Positions 32,543-53,761 of a stretch of 64,000 nucleotides of DNA are shown one piece after another. How positions within the stretch are numbered: position 1 is the first letter of the stretch; each line of letters starts with the position of its first letter. The stretch lies in IMG/VR virus record IMGVR_UViG_3300027881_000007, positions 1 to 64,000 of that record. One strand, 5' to 3'. Made by a program: the position numbers and the translations under genes. The DNA comes from a virus. A model generated the notes under the pieces. The model saw nothing but the letters and a program-made list of their open reading frames with translations, ran no database searches and was not told the origin of the DNA.

Positions 32543-33202
32543 TTATACAATCTCCTCACACGGAGGTATAGGAATCACCTCTCTAGCAGCCACAAAGTCG
32601 AAATACAGTTCAATTACAAAGGCCTCATAACAACTTTGTAAGACTTCAAATGGTTGAGAGATAAGAGTTGTAGTATCATAGACTGAAGTGTCCTCATCAA
32701 TCTTCAACTTCAAGTACACCCATATCAACTTTGATAAATCAGTACTTAGAGCATCTAGTGAGGCATACAAAGTTATTGACGCAGTTGAATCAACTAGAAC
32801 TACTGAGGTTGAATCAACCAAATTAACTCTAGTTGGGTCAATGCGATATGCCAGTAGAGTATTTAGTAGGGTAAAATCATCTGGTTGGAGATGAAATAGA
32901 TTAAATGCATTAGTGCTGTCACATACTTCATACACCTTGGCGGAAGCATATACCGTTATTCTCTCCCTTACCATAGCTGGCCACTTAGACTTACTCTCTA
33001 TATCTTGGAAAAGATATTCATACTCAGTAAATGGATATGATTCATCGAACAGGAGTTGAATGAATGATTTTGGTTTTAGAAAGAGAGTGGGAATTTCAAC
33101 AGGATAAGGTATCTTATCTTTATTGAGATTCCTGTAAACGACTGCCCTACTAAACCAATATTGTAATTCATTTACTAAACTTGTGGAAAATGGTAACGTC
33201 AT
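32543..33202 (-). CDS. hypothetical protein, probably structural
   Basis: Long ORF translationally coupled to the baseplate-like gene; repeated DST motifs. Confidence 0.6.
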   Translation of the reverse strand: MTLPFSTSLVNELQYWFSRAVVYRNLNKDKIPYPVEIPTLFLKPKSFIQLLFDESYPFTEYEYLFQDIESKSKWPAMVRERITVYASAKVYEVCDSTNAFNLFHLQPDDFTLLNTLLAYRIDPTRVNLVDSTSVVLVDSTASITLYASLDALSTDLSKLIWVYLKLKIDEDTSVYDTTTLISQPFEVLQSCYEAFVIELYFDFVAAREVIPIPPCEEIV

Positions 33203-33891
33203 TAAGACTCCTCTTTCGAAATGAAAGAACTAAGTACCATGTAAATATGTCCTTCAAACTCGTGTGGATCCATACCTAATTCATCAGCAAAGGCATGTAC
33301 TTGTTTATCCGAAGGATTTGGATTGGCTTTAAAGAATTTTATAATTTTTGCATGAATGTCTCCACTATCTTCTTGTTCATGCACTGGTTCAGCAGCCTCA
33401 GCTTCAGCTTTAGTTGTCTGTACAGTTCCAGACGGATGATTTGGGGGAGAATAGACTGAATAAAGTTTCAAGTCATCTTCATCCGAGATATTAATAACAT
33501 TGTGTTTAGTTCCAGCTGGTATAACAAATGCTGAACCATCTTCTATTAATATCTCCTTTCCATTTAGGACTACTTTACCTTTTCCTGCTTCAATCCTAAT
33601 AAATTGATCAACATTGGAATGATTCTCTTCTCCAATATCTTCACTAGGCCGAATGCTCATCAATACTAACTGAGATTTTGTAGCAGTATAAAGAACCTTA
33701 CGAAAATTCTTATTTGCTATCGTTTCCTTTTCAATATTAATAAGAAACCCATCAGGAGCTTTATAAATATCAACTTCGTGAGCAGCTTGCTCATACATCT
33801 CACGGATGCATTTTTTCTTAATGGGTCACCACCTCATCCCGGGCGGACAATCTTTCTTCTCAGATAAGTGTTTCAGGTAACTGTCGATCAT
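33202..33891 (-). CDS. cupin-domain protein with N-terminal CPPGMRW-U-PIKKKC module; predicted selenoprotein (TGA at 33826-33828)
   Basis: AGGAGG RBS before ATG 33891, in frame with the cupin ORF (NFRKVLYT, EENH..VDQF, IPAGTKHNV, YSPPNH); hairpin after the TGA. Confidence 0.75.
33793..33811 (-). promoter_or_regulatory. putative bacterial SECIS hairpin
   Basis: ATGCATC-CGTGA-GATGTAT; loop starts 21 nt after the in-frame TGA, G at loop position 2. Confidence 0.6.
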
Positions 33892-44552: not shown

Positions 44553-44876
44553 TTATGTCATCTTGTATGGATCAACTATAAGCCATTGCTCATACTCCCA
44601 CCGCCTCATATTAACTAATACATCACAATTGTCGTCGGTTCTAATAAAGATCCATCTTCGGGTGAAACCAGTTATGACCCCACGCTTACCTCTAACCTCT
44701 ACCTTCACATTAATGCTCAGTCTCTTATTGACCATGAAGTAGAAGTATGCGACCATGCTATCAATAAAGTTCTTGAGAGCTAACATGACTCCAAATGCAA
44801 TAAGAGTTTGAAATAGGAACCACCATAGTTGCGGTTTAACTGCTGTCATTATTTCCATCATCTCCTTCTGTCCCAT
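44553..44876 (-). CDS. small membrane protein resembling the MscS TM plus beta domain
   Basis: Hydrophobic N-half, then VEVRGKRGVITGF...IRTDD. Confidence 0.5.
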   Translation of the reverse strand: MGQKEMMEIMTAVKPQLWWFLFQTLIAFGVMLALKNFIDSMVAYFYFMVNKRLSINVKVEVRGKRGVITGFTRRWIFIRTDDNCDVLVNMRRWEYEQWLIVDPYKMT

Positions 44877-45258
44877 AACATATCTCCTTCTCTCTTAAGT
44901 ATTCTTTTACTATCTGTATAACTCGACTTCGTATGTCATTGAGCATTTTCTTAGTTCTTAGATGTTTTGGTTGATAAAGAGTCTCGTCGTCATAGAATTC
45001 CTGACCAATTCGTGAGTAAATCTCTTTTAAATGCTCACAAGACTCTGAACAGTTTACATATATTAGGCACTGTGAGCAAATTAGGTCATTTATCGGATCT
45101 GATAGGTTTTTCACTGTTGAGTCGATTTTGACCTGCTCACGTGGATCCTGCGTAAAAATTTTCTTTCTAATCATGGTGCATCCAACCGCCGCCTTTTCTA
45201 ACTTTTTATCTGGATGAGATTTTTTTATGGATCGGTCATACCCAATCTTGTATAGCAC
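44836..45258 (-). CDS. CxxCx5Cx3C family protein
   Basis: CSQCLIYVNCSESC. Confidence 0.7.
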   Translation of the reverse strand: MLYKIGYDRSIKKSHPDKKLEKAAVGCTMIRKKIFTQDPREQVKIDSTVKNLSDPINDLICSQCLIYVNCSESCEHLKEIYSRIGQEFYDDETLYQPKHLRTKKMLNDIRSRVIQIVKEYLREKEICYGTEGDDGNNDSS

Positions 45259-45476
45259 TAATTTTTTCCATCATGTAAGAGAATGATCCAGATGAAGGGG
45301 ATTAAGATAATAAGGAGCGTCATACAAACAATTAACTTAACGGGTTCCTTTAAAGCTCCTCTTCTCTCCTCTTGTCGCTCATACTTCCTCTTATCCTCAC
45401 AGGATATAGAACAAGCAGATATAATTAAGCAAGCGGGACAAGGATCCCTCAGTCGGGTAAACATCCACTTTTTCAT
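45258..45476 (-). CDS. CxxCx5Cx3C family protein with C-terminal TM
   Basis: CPACLIISACSISC and a hydrophobic tail. Confidence 0.7.
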   Translation of the reverse strand: MKKWMFTRLRDPCPACLIISACSISCEDKRKYERQEERRGALKEPVKLIVCMTLLIILIPFIWIILLHDGKN

Positions 45477-45710
45477 ACTCAAGATCCCACGAATTTTTTA
45501 GTATCCAATTTTTCACCCTATATAGGAGTTTCAACTCCATCTTCATCCACCTTAGAGTCCATATAGAAAATCAAACCCCCACATATAATCATATGGATAA
45601 AGAAAGCATTCCATAGACCCATAACAGGTAGACTAATGAAAATAGCAATTGCCATATTCAATACCACCAGGGTTATCCAAGGGTAGAACCACATTCAGTC
45701 TTCCCCCTCC

Positions 45711-46145
45711 CTACCTTATACCATTAATTATGTCATAATTCTTCTTCACAAAAGCAAGGGCCTTCTTTTTACCCTTCTCCTCCAACTTCCTCATTAATAC
45801 CTTAACTTTCTCATCCTTGTCTTTCAACCCTTGCATATTTTTATCTAATAGTTCATTATACTTTTTCTTCTTCTCAGGATCTGTGGTCTTAGTGATCACT
45901 TTCTTAAGGGCACTAATGGCACATCTCTGGTGACATAGGATTCCTAACTTGCCACTCTTTGACATATACTGAACATATAGCATCCCCGGAAGGGTACCTA
46001 ATAGGAATCCTGTTGCTGTCTTGGTACTCAACTTTAGTAGTTTATCACACCTTCTATTACATGGTATGACCTCTTTCATAAATTCTTTGCCATAATATGC
46101 TTCATGTATGTATAACTGTTCTAAATAGGTATCCATTATTTCCAT
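45711..46145 (-). CDS. putative capsid-internal protein (TM plus basic helix)
   Basis: GGAGGAG RBS before MEIMDTYLEQLYIHE leader. Confidence 0.6.
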   Translation of the reverse strand: MEIMDTYLEQLYIHEAYYGKEFMKEVIPCNRRCDKLLKLSTKTATGFLLGTLPGMLYVQYMSKSGKLGILCHQRCAISALKKVITKTTDPEKKKKYNELLDKNMQGLKDKDEKVKVLMRKLEEKGKKKALAFVKKNYDIINGIR

Positions 46146-46146
46146 C

Positions 46147-46335
46147 TTAACTCCTCCCCCTCCCCCTGTCCTCAATCCAATAAGGGGAATCCTCATCTAT
46201 ATTCAATAGTTTACCACAATGGTTACAGTATGCAGGGTACCCATCCATTACATAGGAAAATGTGTGCATACTCATACCTTTACATAGGGAGCAGACAAAT
46301 TTATCCAACCTCTCATAGTCTACAGCTTCTTTCAA
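46147..46335 (-). CDS. small zinc-ribbon protein
   Basis: CSLC...CNHC; GGAGG RBS with GTG start. Confidence 0.55.
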   Translation of the reverse strand: MKEAVDYERLDKFVCSLCKGMSMHTFSYVMDGYPAYCNHCGKLLNIDEDSPYWIEDRGRGRS

Positions 46336-46365
46336 TTTTTCACCTCCCTCTCCTTAGAACAATCC

Positions 46366-46821
46366 TTAAATGGTCATCTCTATATTCATTACTGTATCAG
46401 GATGCAATATCATATCGTCTTTGTTTATATGCCAATAGTCTTTAGTAGTACCACCAAACTTACGGGACATACCATCCCAATCTGCAATCATCTGTTTAAC
46501 ATACTTCATTGGCATAGGTATGGGGATTATCTCGTCTTTCCTAGTTACACTGACCCAATAATTCCAGTGGTGTTTATTTCTCTTTTGATGCCTTAACCAA
46601 CCCAACTGAAAGTTCATATTGTGTTCGTCAGACTGTTTGTACTCCTCGGTGCGATTTGTCTCATTAAAAAACCTTGCATATGGAATAAACTCTGACGGCA
46701 GAAACTTTGATAAATCATGGGTTATGCCATGGATGAATTGCCTAGACTTGACACACTCTATAAATACATTCCATTTATGCTCACACACATACCAAAAGTA
46801 TCTCCAGTACATACTACTCAA
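46366..46821 (-). CDS. DUF5662-like HD-related protein
   Basis: HKWNV, HDLSKF, HQKRNKHH and MIADW. Confidence 0.8.
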   Translation of the reverse strand: MSSMYWRYFWYVCEHKWNVFIECVKSRQFIHGITHDLSKFLPSEFIPYARFFNETNRTEEYKQSDEHNMNFQLGWLRHQKRNKHHWNYWVSVTRKDEIIPIPMPMKYVKQMIADWDGMSRKFGGTTKDYWHINKDDMILHPDTVMNIEMTI

Positions 46822-46956
46822 CCTCTTGTTCTCTTATATCAGAACAATCCTCACAGGTATATTCCATCTCCTCTCCTACAAGGAAACATACCACAGGTTC
46901 ATTACTTATCATAGGGTCTATCTGTTTATTACAGTCAGAACAGTTCACATTAACTC

Positions 46957-47220
46957 CTATATATGCAGGAACAATGATGCCATAGCTCCACCAAATAATA
47001 TTACCCAAAATATCAACTTCATAGCTTCCACTGTATCAAATAGGTTCTTCCTAATCACACCACACCTACTATTATATAAAATACATTGCTCACACACTTC
47101 AGTACATATAGTTTCAATGAGGCATCTCTCACAGGGGTTTCTTAGTATCTTAACCCTGTTGAGTCCTTCTATCAACTTGTCATCCCATATCCATTGACGG
47201 TCATCCATATTGTCATCCAT
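46957..47220 (-). CDS. CxxCx5Cx3C family protein with C-terminal TM
   Basis: CERCLIETICTEVC. Confidence 0.7.
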   Translation of the reverse strand: MDDNMDDRQWIWDDKLIEGLNRVKILRNPCERCLIETICTEVCEQCILYNSRCGVIRKNLFDTVEAMKLIFWVILFGGAMASLFLHI

Positions 47221-47262
47221 CCCAACTCCTACCTTGAAAACTCAGAGTCCAAGTCCGAATTT

Positions 47263-47673
47263 TCATTGAGGTCCATACTTGGGTAATGTGATCCAGGGTT
47301 TTTTGTATTCAGTCTTGCTAAAACTAACCTTCTCTGAATAATAACCATTTGATTCACCTAACCATCTAATGGTCACAGAACCTATAATGGTTGACAACTT
47401 ATAGAATGTCCATGTAAAACTCTCACTACCATACTCCACAGAGTGGTCGTGCTTCTCATTACTAACAACCTCTTCGGCCAACAGTATGGGGTTACCAATT
47501 AAATCCTTTAAATCTCCAACAACATCCACGATGTTGACGGTTTCACATCAGTCTTTGGCATGATACATCTTATATATATCACCTTCTTCGGTGGTAAATG
47601 TCATCTCCGTACTGCCTACATTACCATTGATCTCCTTTATGATCTCATTTTTCATTTCTTCGAACCTTGCCAC
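47263..47673 (-). CDS. conserved phage protein (YHxxD-U-CE); predicted selenoprotein (TGA at 47548-47550)
   Basis: GGAGG RBS plus GTG at 47673, in frame through [12 protein letters not shown] into [16 protein letters not shown]...[18 protein letters not shown]. Confidence 0.8.
47516..47540 (-). promoter_or_regulatory. putative bacterial SECIS hairpin
   Basis: CCGT-CAACATC-GTG-GATGTTG-TTGG; loop starts 18 nt after the TGA and begins with G. Confidence 0.65.
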
Positions 47674-47963
47674 TTGTCGTCCCTCCGCCTCAATTCAAAT
47701 TGATACTCATTACCGTCCCTGAACTCCAGCCTGTGGATACACAACTCCCACCATAGTAGTTTAATGGACTTCCATTTTAGTTTGATTGTCATCTTCAACT
47801 CCTTGAACTCTTCCATCAACTTAATGTATTCGTCTGCAGCTATCTTATCTATAATATAAGTAGAACTCATGAGGCTGTGTCTTTCTAATCTCTGTATGAT
47901 ATTGTTCTTCATCCTTTCGATGACTCTATCTATTGCATCATTCCATCCTTTGTAATAGTCCAT
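47652..47963 (-). CDS. hypothetical protein
   Basis: Tiled ORF starting MDYYKGWNDAI. Confidence 0.6.
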   Translation of the reverse strand: MDYYKGWNDAIDRVIERMKNNIIQRLERHSLMSSTYIIDKIAADEYIKLMEEFKELKMTIKLKWKSIKLLWWELCIHRLEFRDGNEYQFELRRRDDKWQGSKK

Positions 47964-47969
47964 AATCCG

Positions 47970-48287
47970 TCACTCTACGAGAGTGTCCACAATATAGTTT
48001 AGGTTTTCTATTAACTCGTCCTCACTAACCTTATATGTACATCCTCCTAACCATCCCATCATTGCTCCATAAACTGTATGATAATTCTGACACGCTCCAC
48101 TACATATAGTGAATACTAGACAGTCTGTGCATATTTCTCTAACAACCAATGTTACTACGGCCATTAAATCCCATCCACTTCGAATGATCTTTGTGTGATC
48201 TTGTGCGGCCAAGTTTATACTGCTATGGTTGTATTTGAAGTCTGCCACACTGGGGATAATGTCAATTTTCTTCATGATTGCTGTCAT
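47970..48287 (-). CDS. CxxCx5Cx3C family protein
   Basis: CTDCLVFTICSGAC. Confidence 0.7.
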   Translation of the reverse strand: MTAIMKKIDIIPSVADFKYNHSSINLAAQDHTKIIRSGWDLMAVVTLVVREICTDCLVFTICSGACQNYHTVYGAMMGWLGGCTYKVSEDELIENLNYIVDTLVE

Positions 48288-48543
48288 CTTCTTCTTTAAA
48301 CTCCTTTAATATAGTCCAGAACTTCTCTTCTATTCTCTTTTTAGATACATTTAGGTCAGCTATATCTACTAACCATTTCCACATACGACCATAGACCGCG
48401 TCGAAACTAGGGCAACCTATGGTGCAAGTCGATACCACGAGACATTCCTTACAGAGGTTTTCGTCTATTAGGGGTCTGGTTGTCTCTGTGGCATCTTGAT
48501 ATAATGCCTCGACCCTCACTTCGAGGTCATGTATGTTGGACAT
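48262..48543 (-). CDS. CxxCx5Cx3C family protein
   Basis: CKECLVVSTCTIGC. Confidence 0.7.
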   Translation of the reverse strand: MSNIHDLEVRVEALYQDATETTRPLIDENLCKECLVVSTCTIGCPSFDAVYGRMWKWLVDIADLNVSKKRIEEKFWTILKEFKEEDDSNHEEN

Positions 48544-48763
48544 CCTTTATAATCTCCTTGAAGTCTATTATATTCCAAAAGTCCGTAAAACCTTGACAGG
48601 GTAATTTCCAACCCATATGTGTAGAACGCCAGTTGGTATCACCCCACATACCAATGCTGATTTTAGATTCGCCACACCTCTCACAGTACCACATCTCTCC
48701 GCCACCAATCCATTTGTGGGTACGGTCATATCTATAGACTTCTCTATCACTTATAGTTGTCAT
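48527..48763 (-). CDS. small Zn-binding protein
   Basis: HKW...CERCG...C. Confidence 0.5.
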   Translation of the reverse strand: MTTISDREVYRYDRTHKWIGGGEMWYCERCGESKISIGMWGDTNWRSTHMGWKLPCQGFTDFWNIIDFKEIIKDVQHT

Positions 48764-48971
48764 ACTTAGACTTCCAGGGCTTCCAGTAGTAGGGACAATA
48801 TAAACCTTTTTTACCTGCCTGGGGGCTGTGGCAATAACATACTCTACCTATCTTTATTCCGTGCATACAATAACCTTTTATATTCATTTTATGCCACTCA
48901 CATTCATTTTGTCTACTTTTAAATTCTATGATAATTCTCCACTCACATAGTCTAAACCGAGGCACTCCCAT
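48747..48971 (-). CDS. small Cys-rich protein
   Basis: Tiled ORF with 6 Cys. Confidence 0.45.
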   Translation of the reverse strand: MGVPRFRLCEWRIIIEFKSRQNECEWHKMNIKGYCMHGIKIGRVCYCHSPQAGKKGLYCPYYWKPWKSKYDNYK

Positions 48972-49213
48972 AGGTCTTCTCTTAAACTACCATATACCCA
49001 CCAAGTGCAATGCTCTCGTCTTATAGTGTGACAAGTAACACAAGTTTTGAATGTATTGAATCGACCATCCCATTTACCATTAACTCTTTCATACTTCTGC
49101 CCTGGTAGAATCGGTTCACCACATTCACAACACTTATGGGTCTTCCTGGCAACTACAACCTTCTCTGTAGCAAACTCAGGCATATCGCCCGTGTCATTAC
49201 ATACACATTTCAT
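48926..49213 (-). CDS. phage zinc-finger protein
   Basis: ARKTHKCCECG..I.PG..Y...CVTC. Confidence 0.7.
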   Translation of the reverse strand: MKCVCNDTGDMPEFATEKVVVARKTHKCCECGEPILPGQKYERVNGKWDGRFNTFKTCVTCHTIRREHCTWWVYGSLREDLWECLGLDYVSGELS

Positions 49214-49500
49214 GTTGAATCTCCAATCTCTATTTGCTTGTTCTTAAATAGGTTTTCGTGACCCTGAAAACCAGGGAACAGCTGATAATAAGATAGTCCA
49301 TCTGCCTTAATTTCATCTAATTCAACAGATAAATGTGTAGGTATAAAGTCTCCTGAATATTCAGAACTTTTATTTGAGAGGTATATATTTGTAACTATAT
49401 GTCCAGTCTCTTGATGGAATTTATATAATAGTTGGGCAAGTCGGGATTCAAGTTCACACCTCTTCTTCTTTATTTTCTCTAGGTCTTTCATCTTCTTCAT
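49210..49500 (-). CDS. hypothetical protein
   Basis: AAGGAG RBS, coupled to neighbours. Confidence 0.6.
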   Translation of the reverse strand: MKKMKDLEKIKKKRCELESRLAQLLYKFHQETGHIVTNIYLSNKSSEYSGDFIPTHLSVELDEIKADGLSYYQLFPGFQGHENLFKNKQIEIGDST

Positions 49501-49501
49501 T

Positions 49502-49747
49502 TCAACTCCTTCTCTTTGAGGACTTAGACTTCAGTTTCTTGATTTTGTGTCCCTTCACTTTGTGAGGTGGCAACTTATAACCTACAAGCTCCCCCGAGAA
49601 TCTGCCAAATACATCCATGGGTTTTAGTCTTTTATTGCACACGGGACATCTATATTTCTTATCATTATCGTCGAACCATGCTTCACCAGTACACCAGTCG
49701 CTCATTCTAAATCTCCCATGACCTCCCTTACCTTCTCGCTTGCTCAA
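49502..49747 (-). CDS. small basic zinc-finger protein
   Basis: C...CPVC...PPH. Confidence 0.55.
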   Translation of the reverse strand: MSKREGKGGHGRFRMSDWCTGEAWFDDNDKKYRCPVCNKRLKPMDVFGRFSGELVGYKLPPHKVKGHKIKKLKSKSSKRRS

Positions 49748-50108
49748 CTAAACCTTCTATTCTGTCTAATATTCCTAAGTAATTTAATTCGCCGGCCGTG
49801 TACTTGTGCTCATTATCATTTAACCACTGTACCATGCTTTTATATGTATCTAAGTACTCTGAACACACAACTTTACACACTGGGTCAACTAAACATTCCC
49901 CACATACTACACCTGATATAACAGTTAGTACTTCTCTAGCCGTGGGACCACACTCAAATTTATAGTTTAAACCTATCATCTTAATATTTACTGTTGGCTT
50001 CTTACATCCCTTTAGTTGTTGGTGTTCCTTCGAACCGGACGGGATGTTTATATAAATGGGGTCTACTGCTGTTAATTTATCTCTCATTATTTCCATCAAT
50101 TCCCCCAA
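49728..50108 (-). CDS. CxxCx5Cx3C family protein
   Basis: CGECLVDPVCKVVC. Confidence 0.7.
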   Translation of the reverse strand: MGELMEIMRDKLTAVDPIYINIPSGSKEHQQLKGCKKPTVNIKMIGLNYKFECGPTAREVLTVISGVVCGECLVDPVCKVVCSEYLDTYKSMVQWLNDNEHKYTAGELNYLGILDRIEGLVEQARR

Positions 50109-50326
50109 GTCTCTACTAACTCGTCTAGTTTTATTTTGAACTCATCTTCTGTAACATTGTATCCTTTTATCCTGGAGAACCAACTTATCATTGTTCCATG
50201 TATCATGGAGTAGTTGTGACATGACATTTCACATATGAAACCAACCAGGCAGTCCTTACATACAACTTCCTCTATAGCAATTAATATATGTCTACCCCAT
50301 CCCGGTTTCCATTCTACTTGCTCCAC
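50096..50326 (-). CDS. CxxCx5Cx3C family protein
   Basis: CKDCLVGFICEMSC. Confidence 0.7.
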   Translation of the reverse strand: MEQVEWKPGWGRHILIAIEEVVCKDCLVGFICEMSCHNYSMIHGTMISWFSRIKGYNVTEDEFKIKLDELVETWGN

Positions 50327-50574
50327 GTTTCACCCTTCTTCCTCTGTATTACACTCATTGCCTGCCTGAGAAAATGTTGCTCAACCTTCTTTGTATAGGG
50401 ACGACTTTTGTCTATTCTACCAGTTGCACGTTCCGCCCAATCATACTTTCCTCTGCCGTCACAATGAGGACATACAATTGCCTCTGGTTCAAATGGTTCA
50501 TCATTCGTGGGTGCTAATACTAGTCCAACTCCACTACATTGACCACATAAATATTCACCCTCTTTTAATCTCAC
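50314..50574 (-). CDS. DnaJ-type CxxCxGxG zinc-finger protein
   Basis: CGQCSGVG and CPHCDGRG. Confidence 0.7.
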   Translation of the reverse strand: MRLKEGEYLCGQCSGVGLVLAPTNDEPFEPEAIVCPHCDGRGKYDWAERATGRIDKSRPYTKKVEQHFLRQAMSVIQRKKGETWSK

Positions 50575-50815
50575 TAAATCTATCCTTCCATGTTTCGTGT
50601 GTAATCAATATAGCCTTCGCTCGATGTGAGAGTATACCTTTAGCTTCAAATACTTCCCATAGTTCATCACAGACTTCACTACAGTTCATAAACAATATGC
50701 AGTCACTACATTTCTCTTCGACTACCTGAGTTGCCTTGTCGGCCATCTCACTCCAGTCTTGTTTGTTCTTCGTTATTTCTCTTGGGAATAGTTTCACTTT
50801 ATATAATCTCCCCAT
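50555..50815 (-). CDS. CxxCx5Cx3C family protein
   Basis: CSDCILFMNCSEVC. Confidence 0.7.
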   Translation of the reverse strand: MGRLYKVKLFPREITKNKQDWSEMADKATQVVEEKCSDCILFMNCSEVCDELWEVFEAKGILSHRAKAILITHETWKDRFSEIKRG

Positions 50816-51000
50816 CTATCAACTACATGTCTCACTCGATGTGCCATACTTACAGGGGTTATGAGATCTAAAGGGATATTGATATTATTCTCCCTTAATA
50901 CCTCGTATAAGTCGACACAGGATTCGCTACATCTGGTGTACAATAGGCATCCCTGACATTTCTCTAAAATAATTTCAACTAATCTTTCAGCTTCTCTCAT
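50794..51000 (-). CDS. CxxCx5Cx3C family protein
   Basis: CQGCLLYTRCSESC. Confidence 0.7.
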   Translation of the reverse strand: MREAERLVEIILEKCQGCLLYTRCSESCVDLYEVLRENNINIPLDLITPVSMAHRVRHVVDRWGDYIK

Positions 51001-51216
51001 TTAATACTTATTCCTCCACGCATTCCGTATGAGTATACCCATTACTCGATGTGTATAGATTTTCTCCCTTTCAAATTCGCTCCACAACTCATCACAGACT
51101 TCACTACAATTCACTTGTACTATACACTTTTTACAATGTCCTCTAATAAGTTTAAGAGCTCTATCCACTTTTTCATTATCTGATAGTTCACGATCCTTCA
51201 TATGGAACCTCTTCAC
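51001..51216 (-). CDS. CxxCx5Cx3C family protein
   Basis: CKKCIVQVNCSEVC. Confidence 0.7.
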   Translation of the reverse strand: MKRFHMKDRELSDNEKVDRALKLIRGHCKKCIVQVNCSEVCDELWSEFEREKIYTHRVMGILIRNAWRNKY

Positions 51217-51463
51217 TTGTAACAGTATGCTTAAGAAACTTAACCATAGTTAGAATGTCTTTTTCTTCCATATCCCCTTGTGCTTTAATCCTCTCTAGAG
51301 AGGTCATGTATATCTCATTAAACTCGGGGCAAATGTCAGAGCATGTTGTACTAACTAAACAATCAGGACAGAGCACTTTGACTATTGTAATCGCCATTAC
51401 TCTTATCGCTCTGGCTGGAACTTGAGGTTGATTCGTTGCTTTGTGACTATAACTATGTCTCAT
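51188..51463 (-). CDS. CxxCx5Cx3C family protein
   Basis: CPDCLVSTTCSDIC. Confidence 0.7.
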   Translation of the reverse strand: MRHSYSHKATNQPQVPARAIRVMAITIVKVLCPDCLVSTTCSDICPEFNEIYMTSLERIKAQGDMEEKDILTMVKFLKHTVTSEEVPYEGS

Positions 51464-51693
51464 TTTAGAGCATCCAGTATGGCAACTACATGGTTGCCCG
51501 TCGCACCACAGTAACCATTATATGCTTCTGGAACATTAATGTCCCACGTCTTAATAACATCCCACACAGCGTTAAATTCAGGTGTCTCCAGTTCTTCTGG
51601 TAGTGGATCTCTCCACTCGATTGGGTTCTTCAGTTCATTCACTTCTTTCACTTCTCTCTTCATTCGCTTGTCTCCTTTTAACCAAATAACCAA
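51460..51693 (-). CDS. hypothetical protein
   Basis: PEFNAVWDVIKTWDINVP...GATGNHV; start may be MKREV at 51663. Confidence 0.65.
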   Translation of the reverse strand: MVIWLKGDKRMKREVKEVNELKNPIEWRDPLPEELETPEFNAVWDVIKTWDINVPEAYNGYCGATGNHVVAILDALK

Positions 51694-51908
51694 TGAGCAA
51701 AGTCTAACAGTACCATATCTCTAAACTTTAAAATGAATCCATATAATCCGAAAACAATCAAAACTAGATATAAAAATCCTAAGAACATCGCAATAGTTGC
51801 TAGTGCAGATGCCAGGACTGCCAACCAGTGAAGTATTTTACGCCACCAGGGCAGTCCGGCATACCATTTTTCAAATGGTTTAGGATATTTCTGTTTAACT
51901 TTTGCCAC
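51678..51908 (-). CDS. small membrane protein
   Basis: Long hydrophobic segment. Confidence 0.55.
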   Translation of the reverse strand: MAKVKQKYPKPFEKWYAGLPWWRKILHWLAVLASALATIAMFLGFLYLVLIVFGLYGFILKFRDMVLLDFAHWLFG

Positions 51909-52064
51909 TGCAAAATCCTATGCTTATCATTTCTTAAATAAAGATTTAACCCACTCAACAAACTTATCAACGTACTTCTTCACCAACGCTGGTTGTGCAA
52001 TAAAATTCCAACCAACTATTAAACCTATTCCAAAACTAATAATAAGGTCCATAATAATTGCCTC

Positions 52065-52271
52065 CTAGTATGGTATGATTGTGATTAAATCGGCCACCCC
52101 ATAACCTCCGTGGCCATTGCCCTCGCAGTTGTGCATATTAAATAGATGATCTCGGGGCACTTTGAATGTATTACTAATTAGGACATCCTGTAAAATTTTA
52201 TCTGGTACTATTTTCTCTTCTTTGTAAGTTAGTCCACAGTTTCTACAAGTGTAGACGAACTCGTTTTCCAT
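52065..52271 (-). CDS. small zinc-ribbon protein
   Basis: CRNCG...HNC. Confidence 0.55.
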   Translation of the reverse strand: MENEFVYTCRNCGLTYKEEKIVPDKILQDVLISNTFKVPRDHLFNMHNCEGNGHGGYGVADLITIIPY

Positions 52272-52486
52272 GTTCCCTCCTCCTTCATTCGTTGTATATC
52301 ACTGACTTTTGTAAGATGACACCCACAAGTACACCATGTGAATCTTTTATCCTTTTCAAATAGTTCATATTCCTTTTCTTGTTTAAATCTTTCTATTGAT
52401 TCTGGAGACCATGTTTGATTACAGTTGTAGCATTTCCATAACCATCTATAATCATCTGGAAGTTTTCCCATTGTTTTTACTCCCAA
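52229..52486 (-). CDS. small zinc-ribbon protein
   Basis: CYNC...CTCG. Confidence 0.5.
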   Translation of the reverse strand: MGVKTMGKLPDDYRWLWKCYNCNQTWSPESIERFKQEKEYELFEKDKRFTWCTCGCHLTKVSDIQRMKEEGTWKTSSSTLVETVD

Positions 52487-52668
52487 TAAATACAGTCAAC
52501 GGGGCACACTTCCATTGCCTCTGCTATACATTCTTGATCAGTACTATCTGGGTCGATAACTTCTGCCAGCTCTGTGGACTCATTAAAACGAAATATGTCA
52601 GGACATACAATGACACAATTTTCACATCCATTACATTCATCCGCATCTATTCTAACTCCTTTAGCCAT
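52477..52668 (-). CDS. fdx: single-cluster [4Fe-4S] ferredoxin
   Basis: CNGCENCVIVCP...EAMEVCPVDCI (CxxCxxC plus distal CP), acidic, 63 aa; AAGGAG RBS. Confidence 0.92.
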   Translation of the reverse strand: MAKGVRIDADECNGCENCVIVCPDIFRFNESTELAEVIDPDSTDQECIAEAMEVCPVDCIYWE

Positions 52669-52679
52669 ACCTAACTCCT

Positions 52680-52907
52680 TTATGTATATTGATGATTCTT
52701 CTGTTCTTTCACATCTCTTGCCATTGATAATAACTCCGCTTTACGTTCAACTGTTCTATCGTGATGTCTAGTGTCTGCACACATTATCATTAGATAATCT
52801 ATGCCTTCACAGTATTCACTACAAGTTGCTCTAACTATACAACCTTTACATACTATTTCTTTAATTGCTTTCTTACATTCATTATACATACGAATATGTT
52901 CTTTCAT
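52680..52907 (-). CDS. CxxCx5Cx3C family protein
   Basis: CKGCIVRATCSEYC. Confidence 0.7.
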   Translation of the reverse strand: MKEHIRMYNECKKAIKEIVCKGCIVRATCSEYCEGIDYLMIMCADTRHHDRTVERKAELLSMARDVKEQKNHQYT

Positions 52908-53266
52908 CTACGGTCCTCTGCAAGTTTTCTCTTAAACGCATCTACACATCTTCCGCATATGTCATATTCTTCTTTAAGTTTTTCAATGTATGATTCGCTT
53001 CCGTCCCATACTTGTTTAGAAGGATACAAATCAATACCGCAGCATCCTCGGGATGATCCTCCTTTTATGTGCACTTTCTTAGATTTTGAGGTCTGTTTAA
53101 CAATTAGAACAAGTTTTCTAGTACCAACTCTTGCCTTTGCTCGTCTTTTCCTTCTTCTTTCTTCTAGTATAAAGTCTGGAACTACTCCACCAAATATGGA
53201 TCTACAGGGACCCATGTGTGCCTTTCCACAATCCCAACACCGATCAGTCATCTTCGTCTCCTTCAC
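52904..53266 (-). CDS. basic Cys-containing hypothetical protein
   Basis: CWDCG..H..C and CGRC. Confidence 0.55.
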   Translation of the reverse strand: MKETKMTDRCWDCGKAHMGPCRSIFGGVVPDFILEERRRKRRAKARVGTRKLVLIVKQTSKSKKVHIKGGSSRGCCGIDLYPSKQVWDGSESYIEKLKEEYDICGRCVDAFKRKLAEDRR

Positions 53267-53289
53267 TATTCACAGATACTCATCTTCAC

Positions 53290-53556
53290 TTATACATATA
53301 CTCCAACAATGATGCCACCGATTGTAAAAAATAAAAGATCTAATGCTGTATCGTCCCAATGACCTATAGGCCATTGATCAATTGTTTCTCGGGGTAGACC
53401 TAATAGAAAACCGCTTATCCCTCCCATGTACCAGTTGGGATTACTAGCTATAGGGTATAATGCAATTGCTGCCCAAGCTAAGTGAAAGAGTTGATCAAGT
53501 CTTTTTCTCCATGTCTTACCAATCAATTCATCAATCTTGTCTTTAATAGCCATCAT
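53290..53556 (-). CDS. small membrane protein
   Basis: DQLFH, RETID and DL motifs with TM segments. Confidence 0.6.
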   Translation of the reverse strand: MMAIKDKIDELIGKTWRKRLDQLFHLAWAAIALYPIASNPNWYMGGISGFLLGLPRETIDQWPIGHWDDTALDLLFFTIGGIIVGVYV

Positions 53557-53761
53557 CTTCCCCTTTAGTTAGTCCTTTCGCACTATCTATAGCTAATTGC
53601 TTAACCTCATCTGGAGACAACCTTCTACCTATTCTCCCCTCTATTGTATTCATTTGTCTATAAACGGGATTGAAAACTTCGCGATATGTATCGCACGGCA
53701 TATCACAAGTAGCATGAACTATACAACCTTTACATATTATCTCGACGACTTCTTCGATCAT
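53543..53761 (-). CDS. CxxCx5Cx3C family protein
   Basis: CKGCIVHATCDMPC. Confidence 0.7.
   Translation of the reverse strand: MIEEVVEIICKGCIVHATCDMPCDTYREVFNPVYRQMNTIEGRIGRRLSPDEVKQLAIDSAKGLTKGEDDGY

Follow-up and report, generated by a model that had tools for sequence, protein, structure and literature searches.

A UGA codon within a phage DUF7448 gene is probably read as selenocysteine

Introduction

Bacterial selenoprotein genes, of which fdhF of E. coli is the prototype, carry a UGA codon where related genes specify cysteine, followed just downstream and inside the coding sequence by a stem-loop; Sec and Cys forms occur side by side in one family, and UGA serves elsewhere as a normal stop. 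The constraints given for the bacterial stem-loop (bSECIS; PMC13188914) are an apical loop of 3–9 nt with a G among its first two nucleotides (mostly G followed by G or U), an upper stem of 4–16 bp, a UGA-to-loop distance of 16–37 nt, and a minimum free energy (MFE) of −7.5 kcal/mol or lower. The phage gene described here resembles these genes in each of the general traits, and also in its small G-U loop, its 7-bp upper stem, its 18-nt spacing and an MFE below −7.5 kcal/mol. It differs from them in that its carrier is a phage without Sec machinery.

Selenoproteins of eukaryotic viruses are represented by the glutathione peroxidase homologues of molluscum contagiosum and fowlpox viruses. Like the product proposed here, these proteins are encoded by the virus and dependent on the Sec-insertion machinery of the host. 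However, they stem from captured host GPx genes and rely on a SECIS in the 3'-UTR, SBP2 and eEFSec, whereas the phage gene has a bacterial element within its open reading frame and belongs to a phage-specific family without an assigned function. A few viruses are described as redefining UGA as Sec (PMC8310308).

The residue affected in the phage protein lies next to a second cysteine, an arrangement with precedents among cellular selenoproteins. The C-terminus of animal thioredoxin reductase, for instance, reads Gly-Cys-Sec-Gly. Such CU or UC dipeptides recur in selenoproteins, and annotation of the corresponding genes typically errs by truncating them at the UGA (Haft and Gwadz preprint, doi 10.1101/2022.07.06.499078). 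The MerB-like SaoL, HgcA and their relatives (10.1101/2022.07.06.499078) likewise carry Sec directly beside Cys and act, as does thioredoxin reductase, in organometallic or disulfide chemistry in cells; none of them has a sequence relationship or a recognised fold relationship to DUF7448. In the literature searched, DUF7448 is absent from the known selenoprotein families, and no paper on a phage-encoded selenoprotein or on DUF7448 was found, the 2026 review PMC13188914 included; journal coverage was incomplete, and absence is not proof. The new elements are the family and its carrier, a phage lacking Sec machinery; the proposed mechanism is the one used by ordinary bacterial selenoprotein genes.

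Results

A phage reading frame interrupted by a single UGA

The window analysed here is a stretch of 64,000 nucleotides and constitutes the first 64 kb of the linear 113,344-bp IMG/VR record IMGVR_UViG_3300027881_000007, which originates from seawater metagenomes and is 36% complete according to CheckV. A first-pass annotation, made from the letters of the window, had proposed a hidden selenoprotein gene on the minus strand that is opened by a GGAGG sequence and a GTG codon at 47673, is interrupted only by a TGA at codon 42 beside a Cys codon, and fills an otherwise empty gap of 120 bp. The sequence bears this out: both start signals are present (Table 1), the minus-strand translation of the frame 47673..47263 is uninterrupted save for this one TGA next to a Cys, and the list of open reading frames leaves about 120 bp unassigned between the 88-aa ORF and the upstream gene (end at 47652). 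Gene calling with table 11 breaks the frame into two pieces, a 41-aa ORF (47548..47673) and the 88-aa ORF (47263..47529). The latter corresponds to the C-terminal two thirds of the DUF7448 protein, and homologues align unbroken across it and the 41 codons upstream. A six-frame search located DUF7448 as a single copy in the phage record, with one TGA inside.

Table 1. Coordinates of the DUF7448 gene, its signals and the companion candidate in the window
Feature	Position	Strand	Remarks
DUF7448 / phrog_2650 gene, one internal UGA	47263..47673	-	136 residues, proposed Sec at 42; from translation and profiles
GTG start	47671-47673	-	read from the sequence
Terminal stop TGA	47263-47265	-	read from the sequence
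GGAGG, Shine-Dalgarno-like, putative function	47682-47686	-	8 nt 5' of the GTG start
In-frame TGA, codon 42, proposed Sec codon	47548-47550	-	aligned with the leading Cys of D-C-C-E, an invariant motif
88-aa ORF, product of standard gene callers	47263..47529	-	'start' GTG (47527-47529) is the hairpin loop
SECIS-like hairpin, inside the ORF	47516-47540	-	−9.7 kcal/mol; loop starts 18 nt after the UGA
Cupin, other proposed hidden selenoprotein	33202-33891	-	TGA 33828-33830, codon 22, in CPPGMRW-TGA-PIKKKC

The internal TGA is not a read error, as the contigs assembled from each of three seawater metagenome runs match the window exactly over 46800–48200 at a depth of 12–18; two of the three runs are possibly the source of the record, and the third carries no such flag. 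A further run (X4, marine sediment, a small share of the sampled words) covers only 46839–47149, which lies outside the gene, and no RNA datasets were listed among the sequencing runs. TGA terminates 61 of the 199 phage ORFs of at least 80 aa (about 30%), the DUF7448 gene included. At the other UGA-bearing loci described below, TGA ends between 0 and 54% of the long ORFs, with values of 27–54% at six of eight. A genome-wide reassignment of TGA of the type found in tables 4 and 25 was considered and rejected: TGA is an ordinary stop, only one lies inside the gene, and a suppressor tRNA is absent from the record. When all 113 kb were scanned for tRNAs and Rfam families, no tRNA and no family at the gathering score emerged.

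The UGA occupies the column of an invariant cysteine

Both profile families run across the TGA. The match to PF24240 (DUF7448) scores 86.7 bits (cut-off 27), extends over residues 6–118 and takes in positions 2–104 of the 104 profile positions; the match to phrog_2650 has an E value of 4e-42. Searches with tblastn returned 159 phage records, mostly of Bacillus and Pseudomonas phages, as single alignments spanning the TGA. The first-pass annotation had given YHxQDCCExV as the normal reading of this family. This was correct: in alignments built from annotated homologues first and then from 45 IMG/VR homologues, the consensus of 46 homologues is MYHxQDCCESV, in which H38, C42, C43, E44 and V46 never vary. 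The TGA coincides with C42, which opens the Cys pair in the strictly conserved H-x-x-D-C-C-E. Cys stands at this column in 108 of 110 genes that were sampled irrespective of stops.

The window gene shares further invariant residues with the Cys forms (TWTFY and R-W-x-G-x-S-N-G-Y-Y-S-E), and it has the same length as, for example, UJJ74664.1 of Bacillus phage BM-P1. It differs from them in its UGA in place of the first Cys codon, in the hairpin that follows, and in the apex residue of that hairpin, which is Val rather than the usual Glu or Asp. Identity to annotated phage DUF7448 members is 46–52%, and the closest IMG/VR homologue is 58% identical. No near-identical DNA was present in the phage collection. 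A single-protein locus search in IMG/VR gave nothing; alignment-based searches did return homologues.

UGA recurs at the same codon in unrelated phages

Among the first 80 homologue loci from IMG/VR, two distinct genes carry TGA at the codon-42 column: L047 and L049, the latter being 100% identical over 3.4 kb to L050 from a different metagenome. Further cases were collected with a DNA pattern (TGA-TGY-GMN at the right distance before T-W-T-F-Y), which demands the TGA and hence selects UGA forms; it yielded four more true IMG/VR cases, two contigs of metagenome-assembled genomes (MAGs) and at least 30 metagenome contigs, at least 25 of them new and distinct. At least 34 distinct sequences with TGA at this column are thus available (6 from IMG/VR, 2 MAG contigs, at least 25 from metagenomes, and the window), most of them found through the pattern that requires the TGA. 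The UGA-bearing contigs have only the DUF7448 gene in common with the phage of the window.

Because the pattern selects for UGA, we also drew two samples blind to stops, which comprise 110 distinct genes and 11,042 codons. Only 2 in-frame stops occur in them, both TGA and both at the codon-42 column, in genes in which about 10.5 codons each are one step from TGA. The second Cys codon is never TGA, neither in the 110 sampled genes nor in the 34 UGA forms listed. The search for TGA-bearing homologues that the first-pass annotation had called for thus produced 33 others among the matches listed, mostly with a hairpin, and the relatives show no further inactivating mutations of the kind expected of pseudogenes.

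In a quick tree, the UGA forms lie scattered among Cys forms, with 16 changes by parsimony. The starred branches force only one of these changes, so that independent origins are not established by this weakly supported tree. One phage record of 103 kb (IMGVR_UViG_3300033489_000004) contains two DUF7448 paralogues (L079:1498–1860 and L090:2630–2990), one of which is a Cys-Cys form and the other a TGA-Cys form.

A hairpin downstream of the UGA has co-evolved with it

A perfect 7-bp stem with a GTG loop had been noted after the TGA, and it is real: CAACAUC pairs with GAUGUUG at 47520–47536 around a GUG apical loop at 47527–47529. Past a U.U mismatch, this upper stem is extended by 3 pairs (lower stem CCG/UGG), so that the complete element reads CCG-U-CAACAUC-GUG-GAUGUUG-U-UGG (47540–47516), preceded by 7 nt after the UGA. 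With its GUG loop, 7 bp, 18 nt and −9.7 kcal/mol, the hairpin lies within all four bSECIS constraints (PMC13188914). Compared with dinucleotide shuffles of a 66-nt stretch it is not unusual (z = −0.10), and compared with synonymous-codon shuffles its z is −1.96. The hairpin of the window is modest and by itself not beyond chance; its significance comes from the synonymous shuffles and from the comparison across the family.

This comparison separates the two forms of the gene. Stems with 6 or more contiguous pairs whose loop lies 16–27 nt downstream are present in 27 of 34 UGA forms vs 15 of 66 Cys forms (Fisher 5.5e-8), seven UGA forms being without a clear hairpin by this criterion. The hairpins in those 15 Cys forms are explained by the peptide encoded at the site, I-E/V-D-I, which is partly palindromic by nature. 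In a crude implementation of our own, all four bSECIS constraints apply to 21/34 UGA forms vs 10/66 Cys forms (3e-6), with 13 of the 34 UGA forms falling outside them. The mean z against synonymous shuffles is −1.55 for the UGA forms (31/34 negative) vs +0.02 for the Cys forms (Mann-Whitney 6e-8).

Nineteen UGA forms share a triloop register, and in these 28 cells are changed on both sides of a pair vs 10.4 in shuffles (0/500), with far lower values in slid controls. Since these 19 were picked for having a hairpin, the compensatory changes alone count as evidence, and the percentage of paired positions does not. The codon at the hairpin apex specifies Val (GUN) in 13/34 UGA forms vs 0/66 Cys forms (1.3e-7); in the latter, this site is occupied by Glu, Asp, Asn, Gln or Thr. 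Hence, the protein sequence itself has shifted in the UGA forms, and it has done so in a way that lets the loop begin with G-U, the arrangement favoured by the SelB-type consensus. Collectively, these observations show that the UGA and the hairpin have co-evolved.

Strong hairpins persist in some Cys forms. In one of these (L008, IMGVR_UViG_3300033142_000627), the hairpin at the SECIS position has 11 bp, and the quick tree joins the gene to a UGA form (L090) as its sister; the hairpin may be a 'fossil' SECIS left behind by a recent change from Sec to Cys.

Predicted structure and gene context

An AlphaFold2 model computed from 46 sequences (pLDDT 88.4, pTM 0.79) is mostly beta and places the H38-x-x-D-U-C-E44 motif in the loop between strands 33–37 and 45–52. 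Fold recognition gave no PDB sequence match and no Foldseek match at E ≤ 0.001 (best E at least 0.05), and the best structural match, to the toxin-immunity protein 8owu_E (VIA Z 6.3), is within the noise range. In a comparison with thioredoxin-fold redox selenoproteins, which have their Sec in a CxxC-type motif (CxxU or UxxC), the motif found here is a vicinal U-C, the model is mostly beta, and its matches are weak and unrelated.

Sec takes the place of Cys almost exclusively where a site is redox-active or binds metal, and for this reason the UGA, if read as Sec, would single out the first Cys of D-C-C-E as the residue that does the work; the same residue would be the reactive one by the further argument that only the first of the two vicinal cysteines is exchanged for Sec. 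It is reasonable to suppose that this cysteine acts as a redox-active nucleophile, which could form a selenenylsulfide with its neighbour, or as a metal ligand, and that the protein has a catalytic role.

The ORFs flanking the gene at 96 loci include no recurrent partner. The context is one of general nucleotide metabolism and replication, with genes for ribonucleotide reductase, MazG, HD proteins, dUTPase, DnaB and methylases. In Bacillus phage BM-P1 (Herelleviridae, OK349510.1), the Cys-form gene (L001:1432–1830) sits between the genes for the alpha and beta subunits of a class Ib ribonucleotide reductase, a placement that is a possible hint at a redox role tied to nucleotide reduction.

Search for selenocysteine machinery

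Neither selA, selB or selD nor a tRNA-Sec is present on the 113-kb record, whose completeness was put at 36%. Nor did five further records of UGA-bearing phages, among them a complete one, yield a tRNA-Sec; the near-threshold matches there were ordinary tRNA-Leu and others. Since the phage record is without Sec genes, decoding of the UGA as Sec would have to rely on the host. A Desulfobacterales MAG that includes a UGA-bearing contig, a 9.6-kb phage-like sequence (L155) whose binning is insecure, contains a full-length selB (389 bits; cut-off 242); the same MAG gave no tRNA-Sec match above the cut-off.

Discussion

Proposed decoding of the internal UGA

The gene shows the traits by which new bacterial selenoprotein families are recognised in metagenomes (PMC1976440), namely a Cys/Sec pair, recurrent UGA-bearing homologues and a bSECIS hairpin, all of them established computationally. 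The recurrence of both the UGA and the hairpin at the column of an invariant Cys leads us to conclude that the UGA most likely encodes Sec. The suspicion of a hidden selenoprotein voiced in the first-pass annotation is thereby strengthened, on the grounds of the Cys/UGA pair at an invariant column, the many UGA homologues, the bSECIS-compliant hairpin and the co-evolution of the two elements. We therefore consider it probable that the gene 47673..47263 specifies a phage Sec-Cys selenoprotein whose UGA is decoded by the SelB and tRNA-Sec of the host.

By analogy with the bacterial paradigm, the hairpin, which starts 8 nt after the UGA and presents its GUG loop 18 nt downstream, would function as a bacterial-type SECIS. 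Host SelB charged with Sec-tRNA-Sec would bind to it and, competing with RF2, bring Sec to the UGA, whereas the terminal UGA, which has no such hairpin, would give normal termination. Reading of codon 42 as Sec would create the sequence H-x-x-D-Sec-Cys-E in the loop that connects predicted strands three and four, with Sec taking the place of the first of two vicinal invariant cysteines. As the phage fragment lacks Sec machinery, the protein would be completed only in a Sec-competent host.

Alternative explanations

The main rival to decoding as Sec is readthrough without selenium, be it by a near-cognate tRNA for Trp or Cys, perhaps stimulated by the hairpin, or by a Cys-charged tRNA-Sec-like tRNA delivered by SelB. 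Leaky UGA decoding and SelB-dependent insertion of Cys by tRNA-Sec-like tRNAs are both known in bacteria, the column requires a Cys-like residue, and no Sec machinery is tied to the phage of the window. However, the hairpins fit the SelB-type consensus in their spacing (16–37 nt) and in their small loops with G followed by G or U, and the GUN codon at the apex is confined to UGA forms (13/34 vs 0/66). A phage in need of Cys could, moreover, just retain UGY, which about 98% of the sampled members have. On balance, we regard selenium-free readthrough as unlikely.

The UGA could also be a true stop, in a gene that is split or subject to programmed truncation; its first part would then be a 41-residue peptide, and the C-terminal 88 residues would either be made from the GTG at 47529 or not at all. 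Both pieces are indeed ORFs under table 11, and this GTG is found 6 codons past the UGA. It forms, however, the hairpin's apical loop and lacks a Shine-Dalgarno sequence, and no restart codon is conserved at this position among the other UGA forms, whose loop codons are GUN, GAA, GGA and others. Termination at the UGA would part the invariant H-x-x-D from C-E, and it would cut through what the AlphaFold2 model (pLDDT 88) depicts as one continuous sheet-rich domain to which both parts contribute. An arrangement of this kind is very improbable.

We give slightly less credence still to a pseudogene, in which a nonsense mutation from TGY to TGA would have inactivated the gene. A single substitution converts TGT or TGC into TGA, and the gene is the only DUF7448 copy in the part of the genome covered by the record. 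Against decay of this sort stand 34 distinct sequences from unrelated phages that have the stop at one and the same codon, with none elsewhere in the 11,042 sampled codons; the adjacent and equally mutable second Cys codon, which was never TGA in the 110 sampled genes and the 34 UGA forms; and the fact that both halves of the gene are open and conserved, with the UGA accompanied by changes that preserve the RNA structure.

That the TGA stems from faulty sequencing or assembly, or that the phage translates TGA as sense throughout, has practically no likelihood, since nothing except the prior error rate of metagenome assemblies speaks for an error and the identical contigs from three runs at a depth of 12–18 speak against it, while about 30% of the long ORFs, the DUF7448 gene among them, end in TGA and the record contains no suppressor tRNA. 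Truncation, pseudogene and error remain improbable even when they are taken together.

Implications of a probable phage selenoprotein

If codon 42 is indeed read as Sec, viruses of bacteria encode selenoproteins that need the Sec machinery of their hosts for completion. Gene callers split or truncate such genes, and phage proteomes would consequently be mis-annotated in a systematic manner at these sites. A gene that can be finished only in Sec-competent hosts would mark the host range of its phage and tie phage fitness to the supply of selenium. DUF7448, a widespread phage family found among genes for nucleotide metabolism and replication, would become directly testable. The combination of the UGA, the hairpin and the Glu-to-Val change in the loop would provide a compact natural series on the evolution of a SECIS element within a coding sequence.

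Further observations on the phage record

A cupin gene had been proposed as a second hidden selenoprotein of this phage (Table 1). Pfam Cupin_2 covers its residues 77–147, and phage homologues align from residue 49 only, so that the TGA at codon 22 is not covered. A quick check gave no support for the 31-codon N-terminal extension or for a Cys at the column, and the claim is not upheld. A listing of in-frame TGA junctions turned up no other convincing readthrough candidate in the genome.

Outside the window, the record encodes a 145-nt tRNA-like RNA on the plus strand (L006:1278–1422; genome positions 85278–85422), which is followed by a hairpin resembling an intrinsic terminator. It folds into a cloverleaf (−61.5 kcal/mol, z −5.0). 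The acceptor stem comprises 10–11 bp, and the D-stem has 5–6 bp and a loop of 4 nt; the GGGUUCGAUUCCC T-arm is perfect, and the variable arm is branched and very long. The 'anticodon' arm ends in a CUA triloop, and there is no UCA in a 7-nt loop; the RNA scores 18.2 bits with the Rfam tRNA-Sec model (gathering score 47) and was not called by ARAGORN. Its long acceptor stem, its 6-bp D-stem with a 4-nt loop and its perfect T-loop are typical of tRNA-Sec or allo-tRNAs. That the phage in this way also supplies a recoding tRNA, acting on the UGA of DUF7448 or on UAG codons elsewhere, strikes us as highly doubtful; if true, it would mean that a virus-borne tRNA for Sec insertion or stop-codon recoding acts together with a phage selenoprotein family.

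The neighbourhood of the DUF7448 gene is a run of small minus-strand genes that stretches from 44836 to 53761 and includes, for example, the ORFs 46957..47220, 47970..48287 and 48262..48543. Many ORFs of this run share a C-x2-C-x5-C-x3-C motif, examples of which are CERCLIETICTEVC, CTDCLVFTICSGAC and CKECLVVSTCTIGC.
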